Source: Nitrososphaera viennensis EN76 (GTDB taxonomy: Archaea > Thermoproteota > Nitrososphaeria > Nitrososphaerales > Nitrososphaeraceae). From it: DNA of 32,000 bases. Below are positions 13,169-18,153 of the stretch, one piece after another. The position numbers and the translations under genes were made by a program. Under the pieces are notes generated by a model. The model made no database searches. It was given only the letters and a program-made list of their open reading frames with translations, and had not been told where the DNA came from. Positions within the stretch are counted from its first letter, which is position 1. Every line of letters begins with the position of its first letter. Where the stretch lies: contig NZ_CP007536.1 of NCBI RefSeq assembly GCF_000698785.1, positions 2,250,001 to 2,282,000 of the forward strand, written 5' to 3'.

Positions 13169-13576
13169 TTACGTGGTGGGTGCTTCTACAACCAATGCCG
13201 CAAACCTCGTGCCGTCTGATGTTGTCACGCCTACTTCGTACGGTTGGCCGCCTAACCAGTTAAACGGTATCACAAGTTTGGCTTCTTCTAGACTTTTGAT
13301 ATCCTTTGAAGGCTCAATCGCCGCCGGTACTATCCTGTCGTTAATGTCTGCCTGAGCTATCTTAACTATTTCAAGGCCATTATTGCGCACATGCGCGGTA
13401 ATCACTCCGTCTCCGAATTCAACTCGGTCTATTGTCACGCTTGGGGGAGGAATGTCTGCATTTGCAGCTGGGTCTCCCTGCCATAGGATAAATGCCATCA
13501 TAATGAGACCCGTCAAGACGGCCGGTACTGCAGTAATTATGACAAGCTTTTTGTTTGTGATATTGGCGGTAGCCAT
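13169..13576 (-). CDS. Membrane-anchored hypothetical protein co-transcribed with the NirK-like gene
   Basis: 135 aa with an N-terminal TM helix followed by a likely beta-rich ectodomain. Its start lies 10 nt after the stop of the upstream gene. Confidence 0.6.
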   Translation of the reverse strand: MATANITNKKLVIITAVPAVLTGLIMMAFILWQGDPAANADIPPPSVTIDRVEFGDGVITAHVRNNGLEIVKIAQADINDRIVPAAIEPSKDIKSLEEAKLVIPFNWLGGQPYEVGVTTSDGTRFAALVVEAPTT

Positions 13577-13585
13577 CTCTCTTTA

Positions 13586-14608
13586 TCATTCCCTTACCAG
13601 AAAGGCTCCAGTCCAGCCCTTCTCCGCAAACTCTGTCTTGTGGGCGTGGAACATGTACTGTCCAGGGTACTTGTACGTGAATTCCAGTATTGCACGCTCG
13701 CCCTGGCTCATAGTCACCATGTCCGCGTACTCGTCAGGAGTAAGGCTTGTGCCAGTGCGGTACAGGTGGAACAGGTTTCCGTGCAGGTGGAAATTGTTTA
13801 TCTGGTCAAATTCGAGTATGTTTACCAGATACACGCGTACCGATTGATTCTTTTCAATCTGTATTGGGTGATGCATGTAGTAGAACGGGATGCCGTTTAC
13901 CGTGTAGAAATTATTTTCAGTGTCAAAATCAGTGTCGTACCCATTCATCATCATCACCATTTCATCGGCTGGCGGGCGCGGCCCCTTCGGGTCGACGATG
14001 TATGCGCCATAAAGACCGTGGGCAATATGTTCTTCAAGGGGCTGTACATGGCAATGGTATAGGTGTAAGCCAAAGGGCTCCGCCGTAAACTCGTAGATAA
14101 ATCGGCCTCCCGGCGCGACTTGATCAAATGCACCATCCATTTCAGCGGCATGGATACTGTGAAAGTGCATCGTGTGTGGAAGAGTGCCATTATTGACAAA
14201 GTGGATGCGCACAAGGTCGCCTTCAGTTGCGCGGATCGTAGGACCGGGGACGGTGCCATTGAACGTCCACACATTGTAGGAAACGCCTGGCGACACTTCC
14301 ATCACTCGCTTGTCGTCTGCCACTATCGTAAACTCTCGAAGAGTTGTCCCGTCAGGCAGCTTTGACACGTGCCCGTAGTTGAACTCGCGCAGATATTTGT
14401 CAGGATCTACAACTGCATTGCTCAGTTGCCTGCTATCATGCTCTGGGTCAAGCACGTCGCCTGTCGTCCTGTAGATGCCTGTACTGTGGCCTGCGACCAT
14501 CTTGTCTTCATTTTGCGCCCCTGCCTGCATTTTAACCGACGAAAAAGCCATCACGCTTCCTGCAACAGCTACAGCCATAACCGCCACCAGCAACATATTG
14601 CCGGACAA
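13586..14608 (-). CDS. NirK-like two-domain copper protein (copper nitrite reductase / multicopper oxidase family)
   Basis: It has a signal-like N-terminus. The motifs are PHTMHFH (H-x4-H, compare NirK PHNIDFH), YHCHVQPLEEHIAHGL (C-x7-H-x4-L, compare NirK C-x8-H-x4-M), FHLHGN and FHAHKTEFAEKG. TTG start at 14608, or ATG at 14596. Confidence 0.7.
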   Translation of the reverse strand: MSGNMLLVAVMAVAVAGSVMAFSSVKMQAGAQNEDKMVAGHSTGIYRTTGDVLDPEHDSRQLSNAVVDPDKYLREFNYGHVSKLPDGTTLREFTIVADDKRVMEVSPGVSYNVWTFNGTVPGPTIRATEGDLVRIHFVNNGTLPHTMHFHSIHAAEMDGAFDQVAPGGRFIYEFTAEPFGLHLYHCHVQPLEEHIAHGLYGAYIVDPKGPRPPADEMVMMMNGYDTDFDTENNFYTVNGIPFYYMHHPIQIEKNQSVRVYLVNILEFDQINNFHLHGNLFHLYRTGTSLTPDEYADMVTMSQGERAILEFTYKYPGQYMFHAHKTEFAEKGWTGAFLVRE

Positions 14609-14747
14609 ACGAACTGCAAAAATGTTACATTGATAATATGTGTTATCCCGTTTCTAATCTTATAGAAATCTCGCGCAATTCCCTCAAGACGCTGCCTTGA
14701 GCCGTTTCTGCAAAAACAATATCAACTACGTAATATATCGTCTGAGC

Positions 14748-15173
14748 ATGGCCAAAAAGTCAGCAGGTGGAAGTAAAACAAACGGCATCGTCATAAAAGC
14801 AAAGGCGACATCTTCGAGGATTCTCGAAATAGGACAGAACGGGATCAGGACCGAATTTTCTAACAAGGGCACGATGAGCGGCAAATACCGCGGAGTTCAC
14901 TGGGATACTGTAGAGACGCAAATGAACATCGACGGGACGTCAAGCTGGCGCGTCAAGTTTATTCAGATGACTGACAAGGGAGACATGCTTGTGGGAGAAG
15001 GGGAGGGAACAGGAGAAGCTCCCAATTCTAAAGGCGTTGCAAAACTAAAAGGCAGGGGAACGGTAATGACCGCTTCTGAAAGGCTGGCAGAATTAAACGG
15101 CAAACAATGGATCTGCGAAGTAGACAACAATGTGGCTACTGGCTTTGCCACAGTACGTGTGACTTTTCAGTAA
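14748..15173 (+). CDS. Hypothetical soluble protein
   Basis: 141 aa from the ATG at 14748 (MAKKSAGG...). The longer ORF from 14697 has a non-ATG start. It is divergent from the NirK-like operon. Confidence 0.55.
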   Translation: MAKKSAGGSKTNGIVIKAKATSSRILEIGQNGIRTEFSNKGTMSGKYRGVHWDTVETQMNIDGTSSWRVKFIQMTDKGDMLVGEGEGTGEAPNSKGVAKLKGRGTVMTASERLAELNGKQWICEVDNNVATGFATVRVTFQ

Positions 15174-15189
15174 GTAGAGCCTGTCTTTC

Positions 15190-15206
15190 TTTTTTGTTAA
15201 TTTTTT
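15190..15206 (+). terminator. Two T6 tracts downstream of 14748..15173 (archaeal oligo-T terminator candidate)
   Basis: TTTTTTGTTAATTTTTT lies 17 nt after the stop codon. Confidence 0.35.
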
Positions 15207-15279
15207 ACTTTATCTTGAAAAGATACTATATGCGTGTTTTGGGTTAAAAATGGAAAAAGGAAGAAGAAGATGGCCAGGC

Positions 15280-16644: not shown

Positions 16645-16693
16645 GATTGGTGTAGTTGGAAAAATAGTTTTAACCCTTCTTTACAAGTGATAG

Positions 16694-16706
16694 GTAACAA
16701 AGTTAC
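16694..16706. promoter_or_regulatory. Palindromic operator candidate GTAAC-AAA-GTTAC
   Basis: Perfect inverted repeat, about 62 nt upstream of the start at 16644. Confidence 0.5.
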
Positions 16707-16909
16707 TACAGTTAAAATGATGATGTTTCATATGCAGACACTGCTCACTTTGAGAGGCGTGTTTTTCCATCAGATTCAGAAACGAATGATTCAGAAACCT
16801 GATGATTTAAAAAAAGAAAAAGAGAAAGTGCCCACCCGTTGTCATTTGCTTGACTTTTGTGGGCCCTCTGTCTGTGTGTGCAAGATTCGTTGCTTTGGTC
16901 CTTGCTTTC

Positions 16910-17185
16910 TTAACCAGTCATGTTTCCAGTCTGGTTTCCGCCAGTCATGTTTCCACCCGGAAGCGGGAACGGAGGAGCTGGAGGAGTTGCCTGGTCTGGA
17001 TTTGCTTCAAAAGCCGTCTGGGTCATGTTTCCAGTCACGTTTCCAGGCGGCGTCACGTTTCCACCCGGAGGAGTCACGTTTTGCGCGAAAGCGACTGGTG
17101 TTGCTATCGCCACTGATGCGACGGCAAAACCTGCAGCCAGCAACGCAAGTACGAACGCCCTTTTGTTTCCTGTTAGACTTGACAT
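16910..17185 (-). CDS. Truncated paralog with signal anchor plus NxT-repeat linker only and no PepSY core (possible gene remnant)
   Basis: The start is taken at the MSSLTGNKRAF Met (17185), by analogy with its paralogs and the TTTAAA box at 17211-17216. The product is 91 aa with 7 N-x-T sequons. Confidence 0.5.
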   Translation of the reverse strand: MSSLTGNKRAFVLALLAAGFAVASVAIATPVAFAQNVTPPGGNVTPPGNVTGNMTQTAFEANPDQATPPAPPFPLPGGNMTGGNQTGNMTG

Positions 17186-17236
17186 CGCTGAAATGTTGCG
17201 CAATACTGGCTTTAAAGGCTTGAGCAAAAATGATAG

Positions 17237-17249
17237 GTAGCGAGATTAT
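17237..17249. promoter_or_regulatory. Degenerate operator copy GTAGC-GAG-ATTAT
   Basis: It occupies the same position relative to the start at 17185 as the site at 16010. It lies next to a 33-nt block identical to the 15960 promoter. Confidence 0.35.
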
Positions 17250-17442
17250 CCGGAACATTTAGAGCAAAATTTGCAAATACTATTTTGGCTGTGAAATGTC
17301 TGGAAGCTCTCTTTGAACTTCTTTCTGTTTAGCGCCACTCGCAGGCATTTTTTCGCAATCAACGCAATCATAGGTCTGACATGCCCTGTCATATCTAGAA
17401 ATGGGTAATTTGAAAAAAGAGATAAAGGAGGACGAAATCGCG

Positions 17443-18153
17443 TCAGAAAACGCCTCCGATGCCCAGGTCGCCCATAGGCGCTCCTTCCGAAGTGGTGAGT
17501 ACATTTCCTGTTCTCGGGTCGACGACTACCTGGAAGAGCATTCCATTGTTTACGTCTATCACGGTGATATTATACACCGGATTGCCCTGCATTATCTCAA
17601 AGCTGCCTGCAATTGCCGTGCCGTTGACAAACTGTCCTTCTGCAACGTCAGCAGCGTCCACCAGCGTCGCAGTCGCGTTTCCACTGTCTAGAAATTCCTT
17701 TCCTCCTTGACCACCAATCGTGCCTAAAGGCGTTCCTTCAGAGATGGCAAGTACAATTCCGCTGCTGGGGTCGATGATCACGCTGTAGGCAGTATCATTA
17801 CCAATGTTGGCCACTGTGGTGTTGTACACCAGGTAACCCTGCACTACATCAAGGTGACCTAGAATTACAGTTCCATTGACAACTTGATTCTCTGCTATAT
17901 CTGAAGCATCGACAAATGTTGCGTTCAGGTTTTCATTTAAAAAGTCCTTTGCTGCTTGTTGGGCATTTATGGAGCCAGTTATCTGAAGGGATGTCTGTGT
18001 GGCATTACCTCCTTCCGGACTGGCTGGCGGGACTTGCGCGGAAGCAAGAGGCATCATCACCACTACTGCTGTTGTACCCAGTGACGCAACCGCAAAGCCG
18101 ACCGCCAACAGGGCAGGAATAAACAATTTCTTGTTTCCTGTAAGACTTGACAT
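17443..18153 (-). CDS. Secreted/anchored protein with two PepSY-like domains
   Basis: N-terminus MSSLTGNKKLFIPALLAVGFAVAS. There are two copies of the ...G(H/S)(L/F)(D/E)(V/I)(V/M)QG(Y/N)(L/P)VYN(T/I)TV... core. Confidence 0.75.
   Translation of the reverse strand: MSSLTGNKKLFIPALLAVGFAVASLGTTAVVVMMPLASAQVPPASPEGGNATQTSLQITGSINAQQAAKDFLNENLNATFVDASDIAENQVVNGTVILGHLDVVQGYLVYNTTVANIGNDTAYSVIIDPSSGIVLAISEGTPLGTIGGQGGKEFLDSGNATATLVDAADVAEGQFVNGTAIAGSFEIMQGNPVYNITVIDVNNGMLFQVVVDPRTGNVLTTSEGAPMGDLGIGGVF

Follow-up and report, generated by a model that had tools for sequence, protein, structure and literature searches.

What is the function of the small exported proteins encoded on the minus strand between positions 15280 and 18153 of a 32,000-nucleotide stretch of the Nitrososphaera viennensis EN76 genome (contig NZ_CP007536.1, positions 2,250,001 to 2,282,000; here called the window, whose numbering is used throughout)? 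An earlier note on this DNA had described four PepSY-like paralogs, designated A to D in this report, two of them with Met/His-rich tails, and had proposed that they form, together with an adjacent NirK-like copper protein, a set for handling copper outside the cell. We find that the main conserved context of these genes, which that note had missed, is a module of a regulator, a membrane protein with two transmembrane (TM) segments and an operator. Judging from the loci compared here, the conserved unit comprises a winged-helix regulator of ~98-99 amino acids (aa), the two-TM protein and a PepSY protein with a C-terminal tail, all behind the palindrome GTAAC-N3-GTTAC. Metal binding by the tails, probably of copper, is plausible.

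The case for such a module rests first on the operator. Within 770 kb of DNA, made up of the related loci and the window, the exact palindrome was found 112 times; in the loci alone there were 110 exact copies vs. 11 for the runner-up when all 1024 palindromes built in this way were counted (mean, 1.0), a control that rules out chance or base composition as the source of the signal. As to position, the site lies 61-66 nucleotides (nt) upstream of the start codon in 52 of 83 PepSY genes, mostly at 61-62 nt, 47-55 nt upstream in 35 of 47 two-TM genes and 118-295 nt upstream in 31 of 45 regulator genes. Downstream of it come a conserved GTGTCATGGGT-A/C-AACAA element and then the TATA-like TTAAAATA, the spacing between the operator and the TATA box being constant. 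In the window, an exact copy (GTAACAAAGTTAC, 16694..16706) precedes the start of B by 62 nt and has a TATA-like TTAAAA ~20 nt downstream. Another (GTAACAATGTTAC, 19135..19147) stands 67 nt before the start of a DUF7475 gene and 151 nt before the regulator gene, which is divergent, and is followed by the extended promoter TTGTCATTTGTAAATAA, the same as in the PepSY promoters. These two exact copies, in front of B and of the operon for an ATP-binding cassette (ABC) system, bear out the suggestion in the earlier note that the cluster and the ABC genes share an operator. A degenerate site with one mismatch (GTAACGCGGTTAT, 16010..16022) precedes A at the canonical distance of 62 nt from the start, and C and D retain the promoter layout with three mismatches in the site. 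Even the PepSY paralogs that are dispersed, a long way from any regulator gene, retain the palindrome, which argues that the operator acts in trans. For one poly-His relative (P0178) an operator upstream and a regulator nearby were both looked for and neither was found, and distant paralogs of this kind would therefore lie outside the regulon.

The two partner genes were followed through 85 related loci, which were searched by tblastn with the window proteins. The winged-helix regulator (18685..18984, minus strand, 99 aa, HTH_45/MarR-like) was present in 44 of the 85 at 69-98% identity; its family exceeds 900 clusters, the top 120 of which are 72-99% identical to the window protein, with the named members being nearly all ammonia oxidizers. 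One homolog (P0318, 79% identity) is labelled in NCBI as a Phototrophicaceae bacterium, and its contig is probably mis-binned. Compared with the PDB, the regulator gave only weak MarR/PadR matches (E of at least 0.07). The two-TM protein (NVIE_027010, 18245..18646, minus strand, 133 aa), for which 9 peptides are recorded in a published membrane proteome, is encoded beside the PepSY gene in 47 of the 85 loci; the protein is conserved at its cytoplasmic ends, and Gly, Pro, Phe and His abound in its outer loop, as they do in the tails of the PepSY proteins. A loop similar to that of this protein was also seen in a neighboring SHOCT two-TM protein. At loci without the regulator/two-TM pair (L005, L019, L023, L033, L040, L046, L054, L061, L069 and L075), a protein of ~200 aa resembling a winged helix plus TM segment is encoded just upstream of the PepSY gene, along with a divergent 121-aa helix-turn-helix protein; the ~200-aa protein may be an alternative, membrane-bound regulator.

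In a collection of species genomes, 184 stretches encode relatives of the PepSY proteins, and the titles of the best 80 of the 184 name Nitrososphaeraceae, Nitrosocosmicus, a few Nitrosotenuis/Nitrosopumilaceae or unclassified Thermoproteota. By this sampling, the family is found almost only in ammonia-oxidizing archaea.

All four minus-strand open reading frames (ORFs) of the earlier note were recovered, and the translation of each begins, as had been claimed, with a signal or anchor of the Sec type, the last residues of which are AFAQ or ASAQ. In the paralog alignment these signal peptides are near-identical in A, C and D (MSSLTGNK...GFAVAS...AFAQ), with that of B being related. A (NVIE_026970, 15280..15960, 226 aa) continues with a disordered linker, a PepSY core at about residues 104-180 and a Met/His/Gly tail; in B (NVIE_026980, 16144..16644, 166 aa) a short linker with sequons leads to a single PepSY core, which is followed by a disordered tail of the Gly/His/Phe type; C (NVIE_026990, 16910..17185, 91 aa) consists of the signal peptide and a linker with seven glycosylation sequons; and D (NVIE_027000, 17443..18153, 236 aa) carries two PepSY domains and no metal-type tail. 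Only D, with 47 bits over two domains, exceeds the gathering threshold of 24 bits for the Pfam family PF03413, and it is D, aligned with A and B across the same core, that ties the set to this family; A (22.5 bits) and B (15.8 bits) fall short of the cut-off and C has no match to PF03413. Recognizing that the scores of A and B are both sub-threshold, we base their membership on homology and fold. The profiles of the A and B families align with an hhalign probability of 99.9 (E 1.6e-35, 84 columns), and the AlphaFold models have alpha-alpha-beta4 cores at a predicted local distance difference test (pLDDT) of >90 for B and 72-88 for A, in agreement with the PepSY fold, in which helices pack on an antiparallel sheet of four strands. 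The top Foldseek matches of the B model are YpeB (5BOI), Rv0603 (2LRA) and YpmB (2GU3), with a probability of ~1 and a weak E of 0.08-0.13. From profile comparison and predicted structure, then, A and B are clearly homologous PepSY domains. D showed no detectable likeness to any solved PepSY protein when the PDB was searched for UipA-type similarity.

Since C lacks the domain, there are three PepSY paralogs and not the four that had been counted. C as a recent pseudogene was considered and ruled out, given that its ortholog in N. evergladensis is just as short and that no PepSY remnant was found downstream of C. An ORF of 85-91 aa without a folded domain is thus kept in two species (window 16910-17185; L001 3597-3872), and such an ORF, with its signal and its N-x-T-rich Pro/Gly linker, may encode a small secreted glycopeptide. 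The cluster as a whole is a genus-level expansion in which B is the canonical, widely conserved member, and A with its Met/His/Gly tail, C with its linker only and D with its double PepSY are Nitrososphaera-specific derivatives.

The earlier note had further given all four proteins a sequon-rich linker and suggested heavy N-glycosylation. When the number of sequons (N-X-S/T) was judged against 1000 shuffles per protein, the counts in A (8), C (7) and D (8) were each reached in at most 2 of the 1000, whereas the 2 sequons of B were not significant. Concentration in the linker applies to A (4, of the N-x-T type) and C (7) only, those of D lying mostly inside its PepSY domains. As for glycosylation itself, the N-X-S/T type does occur in N. 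viennensis, but the paralogs are not among the glycoproteins detected so far; the S-layer protein and two multicopper oxidases are all that the published glycoproteome contains at 10 or more glycopeptide-spectrum matches, and proteins of low abundance could be missed in it. Within the PepSY domain of the B family we noticed a near-invariant N-G-T sequon (Q-V-x-N-G-T; residue 77 of B, window ~16414-16416), a pattern that points either to glycosylation conserved at this site or to a structural role of the motif.

Both Met/His-rich C-terminal tails described earlier are present, on A (MHGGMMMGPHGGMFGG...PMGGMGF) and on B (GMFGGHGFKGHGFHGYGSWNH), and both are predicted by AlphaFold to be disordered, next to confidently folded PepSY cores. 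The A tail contains 9 Met and 2 His in 41 residues (P ~6e-7 for Met at a 2.5% background) and has the composition known from copper-binding segments, namely dense Met/His, spaced as MxxM, MxM or HxxM, in a flexible region. Of the 28 residues of the B tail, 4 are His. For A we found only 8 homologs, with N. evergladensis as the sole named source, and all 8, including two at 37% identity, have a Met/His/Gly tail of the pattern MHGG-MMMG-x-HGGM-FGG ... PMxGMGF, in which MHGGM and HGGM are conserved in orthologs. B has at least 127 homolog clusters. Among 162 unique B-family tails of at least 12 residues, Gly makes up 30.8%, Phe 8.6%, His 7.8%, Pro 6.7%, Trp 4.9% and Met 4.8% of the residues, vs. 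0% Trp in the PepSY core; two or more His occur in 155 of these tails, and HxxM or MxxH in 62. A profile search recovered 710 relatives among 1.84 billion representatives, some with tails carrying runs of 6-8 His, others of the HGM/MH type, and some of the poly-His relatives also have Asp stretches in the tail. Lack of tail conservation had been set beforehand as a refuting test; instead, the Met/His/Gly and the Gly/His/aromatic make-up was kept across orthologs and family. That this composition persists across orthologs and hundreds of archaeal sequences supports the view that the tails are not random low complexity.

Beyond the PepSY genes, the operator at 19135 heads a plus-strand operon (19202..23668) that starts with the DUF7475 membrane protein (19202-19594) and continues with an ABC ATPase (~19591-20361; ABC_tran, 4e-36), a 669-aa exported NPCBM_assoc/CARDB protein (NVIE_027040, 20358-22367) and a MacB_PCD/FtsX permease (NVIE_027050, 22382-23668; MacB_PCD, 1.4e-13; FtsX, 8e-20). 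An ABC ATPase along with a permease that has the MacB periplasmic core and FtsX domains makes this an exporter of the MacB type. At their N-termini, the ABC ATPase (MTHPYHHHD, 19591-19650) and the two-TM protein (DHHHS, 18620-18646) have cytoplasmic His triplets, that of the latter not being conserved in its homologs. Elsewhere, the genes found behind the palindrome include, besides DUF7475, those for a 124-aa multi-TM protein (~10 loci, among them L006, L021, L024, L036, L056, L058, L059, L071 and L083) and a 180-aa exported protein (4 loci; L027, L052, L057 and L079), with the site 54-66 nt upstream. No Pfam match was obtained for these two families where tested, and they look like additional members of the regulon.

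Published expression data provide a modest link to copper. Among the genes with a log2 fold change (log2FC) of at least 0.51 under copper limitation (Reyes 2020, Dataset S1), B rose by +1.34 (p 4e-31), D by +0.83, the 669-aa protein by +0.72 and FtsX by +0.63; C is not among them. That B, D and the ABC operon rise together, if mildly, is in keeping with a shared operator. In biofilm, where the copper-limitation marker MCO4b was up 7.4, B changed by +0.83 and the oxidase next to the cluster by -1.34 log2FC.

Taking these data together, we surmise that the winged-helix protein would bind GTAAC-N3-GTTAC and control the set including its own gene, with the two-TM protein possibly relaying an envelope signal to it. 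The exported PepSY proteins would reside in the pseudo-periplasm, where their flexible His/Met/Trp tails could bind a soft metal, most likely copper, as a buffer or hand-over protein, with Cu(I) being held through Met, His and Trp and Cu(II) through His and Gly amides; the adjacent multicopper oxidase would not be a functional partner. This account of an operator-controlled PepSY module with soft metal-binding, most likely copper-binding, tails is our best explanation, to which we give slightly less than even credence. As to its parts, we lean somewhat towards the tails binding a metal of some kind, and regard copper in particular as a nearly balanced matter that tips to the negative. Copper is the best single guess because Met, His and Trp are typical ligands for it, because these organisms depend heavily on copper and because the only expression signal came from copper limitation. 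A more ambitious version, in which the tail catches copper and hands it on or reports its occupancy to the two-TM protein, which in turn controls the winged-helix regulator and through it the GTAAC-N3-GTTAC regulon of envelope genes, would constitute a lineage-specific extracytoplasmic system of copper capture and signalling, and this we hold to be distinctly unlikely.

Several observations weigh against our proposal. In a survey of 150 neighboring ORFs from 69 loci, none of the 25 most frequent Pfam families was copper-related. With phmmer against all PDB sequences, the A tail had no matches and the B tail chance matches only; the tails also lack Cys. Gly/Met-rich and Gly/aromatic tails without a metal role exist, as exemplified by the GGM tail of GroEL and by FG repeats. 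The winged-helix protein is presumed from co-occurrence to bind the palindrome. The copper-limitation motif of Reyes et al. 2020 (TTCSGSMTTTGWACYANT) had 0 matches in the window at up to 3 mismatches. Copper-responsive expression, which the copper-handling idea in the earlier note led one to expect, held mildly for B and D, and the Met-rich A, like the oxidase, is missing from the genes with log2FC of at least 0.51; even the response of B is weak, since in the same experiment the top gene rose by +6.99 and 784 genes, about a quarter of all, were induced (Reyes 2020).

Some of these points would suit a regulon for envelope maintenance or envelope stress with no metal role, in which PepSY serves as a protease-inhibiting or partner-binding domain, the role of protease inhibitor being the one in which the domain was first described in the literature, and the tails are flexible cohesive or pH-responsive segments contacting the loop of the two-TM protein, the S-layer or the membrane. 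The Gly/Pro/Phe/His bias that the tails share with the outer loop of the two-TM protein, and with the similar SHOCT neighbor, is in line with this idea, as is the finding that all classes of gene behind the operator, the regulator aside, encode small envelope proteins, and as is the lack of a copper context. Approximately 46 of the 162 tails finish in [I/M/L]-W-[H/R], resembling a recognition motif, and their GHG-x-aromatic repeats are like those of pH-responsive squid-beak proteins just as GGM is like the GroEL tail. However, His is kept in nearly every tail, the His runs accompanied by Asp stretches are typical of metal sites, and the Met-rich A tail with its conserved MH and HGGM does not fit a pH switch; nor does a protease recur among the neighbors (Peptidase_S9 in 2 and Peptidase_M24 in 4 of the 150 ORFs). 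We judge an envelope regulon without metal to be unlikely. The same poly-His and His/Asp tails are typical of Ni/Zn-binding proteins and raise the question of whether the module serves the homeostasis of nickel, zinc or iron instead. Mature D and A are strongly acidic (pI, the isoelectric point, ~4.05), as are the carboxylate-based metal binders LanP and UipA, and the organism has a nickel urease which was induced in the copper-limitation experiment. Nevertheless, the Met and Trp beside His suggest ligand sets of the Cu(I) type, copper limitation is the one condition with an expression signal, and Ni, Zn and Fe transporters are absent from the 25 most frequent neighboring families, leaving another metal quite improbable. 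Scarcely credible, in our estimation, is that the proteins are precursors of secreted Gly-rich peptides, in which PepSY would be the pro-domain, and that the MacB-type ABC system would export the peptides or serve as an immunity pump. An operator is indeed common to B and the ABC operon in the window, and tails such as GGFRGGGGFGHGPFGH resemble Gly/His/Phe-rich antimicrobial peptides of animals and plants, but the ABC genes accompany the family in only ~5 of the 85 loci, no processing protease or cleavage motif is evident and the tails are highly variable in both length and sequence.

This leaves the model of the earlier note, in which the PepSY paralogs and the adjacent oxidase make up one copper delivery set. 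The gene it had called NirK-like (NVIE_026950, 13586-14608, minus strand, 340 aa) encodes a two-domain multicopper oxidase and not NirK: it scores 112.5 bits vs. the equivalog cut-off of 296.3 for TIGR02376, in the PDB it matches the two-domain oxidase 3GDC best (9e-110), with NirK entries at 3e-53 or weaker, and its sequence reads HTMHFH, YHCH, FHLHG and FHAH, i.e., the four multicopper-oxidase motifs HxxHxH, HCH, HxHG and HxH. NirK has a type-2 copper site without the H-C-H motif of the trinuclear cluster, and H-C-H is present here. In the literature the enzyme is filed as lineage MCO1. Adjacency in the window speaks for the model, as do Reyes et al. 2020, who named NVIE_026950 and NVIE_026940 as a linked pair and speculated that it takes part in copper uptake, the latter being called the permease partner of the oxidase. 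NVIE_026940 (13169-13576, minus strand, 135 aa), with one N-terminal TM helix and no match in Pfam or NCBIfam, is for these reasons unlike a ZIP-type permease. A half-site-like sequence with 2 mismatches also occurs upstream of the oxidase at 14616; sites with 2 mismatches, though, are no more frequent than chance (12 found vs. 7.35 expected). Against the model stands comparative genomics. The gene order in N. evergladensis is ABC, DUF7475, regulator, two-TM, D, C, an insertion, A, a 142-aa protein and TP_methylase, and in a third, metagenomic relative it is regulator, two-TM, B, A, a 141-aa protein and TP_methylase; the oxidase and NVIE_026940 are missing from both syntenic loci, and tblastn found the pair in 0 of the 85 related loci, so that we rejected the oxidase as a conserved neighbor. 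By this comparison the oxidase pair are neighbors in N. viennensis only, outside the conserved module. The regulation of the oxidase in biofilm, opposite to that of B, and its absence from the genes with log2FC of at least 0.51 under copper limitation point the same way, as does the finding that the enzyme is not NirK. We thus consider a functional link between the PepSY set and the oxidase to be largely refuted and highly improbable. What does adjoin A syntenically in the three Nitrososphaera genomes is the 141-aa protein (NVIE_026960 in the window, 14748..15173, plus strand), which, like the 135-aa and 133-aa neighbors, has no informative family in NCBIfam or Pfam.

Returning to the reading we prefer, an operator-controlled PepSY module with metal-binding tails, its components are, taken singly, of familiar types, namely a PepSY domain, tails rich in His and Met, and a winged-helix regulator paired with a palindrome. 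LanP (lanpepsy of Methylobacillus flagellatus) and UipA of Microbacterium are PepSY proteins that bind metals (lanthanides, uranyl, Fe3+) outside the cytoplasm via Asp and Glu on the domain. They resemble the window proteins in being small, exported or membrane-anchored and built of PepSY, with a double-PepSY acidic architecture as in D. In contrast to these carboxylate sites for hard cations, here the His, Met and Trp residues of a disordered tail are the candidate ligands, and the window proteins are archaeal, have sequon-rich linkers and show no detectable sequence similarity to any solved PepSY protein. Flexible Met/His-rich copper segments with MxxM, MxM or HxxM spacing are found in CueO, CopA/PcoA, CusF and the Ctr1 ectodomain, that of Ctr1 being glycosylated and extracellular and CusF using Met, His and a Trp, which are residue types enriched in our tails. 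The likeness lies in the flexible Met/His stretches and not in homology, with the candidate tails being placed on a PepSY domain rather than on a cupredoxin, transporter or oligonucleotide/oligosaccharide-binding (OB) fold. CrpH of Bordetella pertussis, which is linked to copper supply and induced by copper starvation, is a PepSY_TM protein, i.e., a haem-binding multi-pass membrane reductase, as distinct from the soluble or singly anchored PF03413 proteins of the window, in which haem motifs are absent. The propeptides of M4 proteases, YpeB and YpmB share the fold, as seen with Foldseek for the B model, but act in protease inhibition or in control of spore or cell-wall enzymes in bacteria and lack such tails. 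With regard to Gly/His/aromatic disordered repeats, the prion octarepeat PHGGGWGQ binds Cu(II) through His and Gly amides, and squid-beak GHG-x-Y proteins work by pH-dependent phase separation and not by metal delivery. The likeness to both is compositional only, HGGGW occurring in 2 of the 162 tails.

Of the remaining window, the cation diffusion facilitator (CDF) transporter that the earlier note had added to the copper context is indeed encoded there (26275-27342), but housekeeping genes lie between it and the cluster; kdpC is NVIE_027140. The locus tags given in this report follow from the agreement of the window with published N. viennensis tags in the order, length and annotation of its genes. 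Positions 1-11000 have a higher GC content than the DNA further on (0.54-0.59 vs. 0.47-0.50) and bear on the plus strand structural genes of a tailed virus, including a tail tube (2223-3101; PF18906, 4e-24), a tail-fibre-like protein (8226-8789; phrog_5417, 6e-39) and a double zinc ribbon protein (5937-6533). This region is probably the tail module of a provirus; a provirus has been reported for N. viennensis.

A large share of global nitrification is due to ammonia-oxidizing archaea, which rely on copper enzymes, and the published models of their extracytoplasmic copper handling include CopC/D and multicopper oxidases only. An exported, nearly lineage-restricted family with conserved tails of metal-ligand type and a mild response to copper limitation is a concrete candidate for a part in such handling. 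Our comparison also removes a misleading cue, given that the copper oxidase is a genome-specific neighbor and not NirK. Full-text literature searches, including PepSY with Nitrososphaera and the locus tags, returned no description of the family, the module or the operator; it is the combination of the parts, the near-restriction to ammonia-oxidizing archaea and the clarity of the operator that are new. In a group which has no genetic system, the 13-bp operator and the highly conserved ~98-aa regulator are among the clearest candidate pairs of transcription factor and site.

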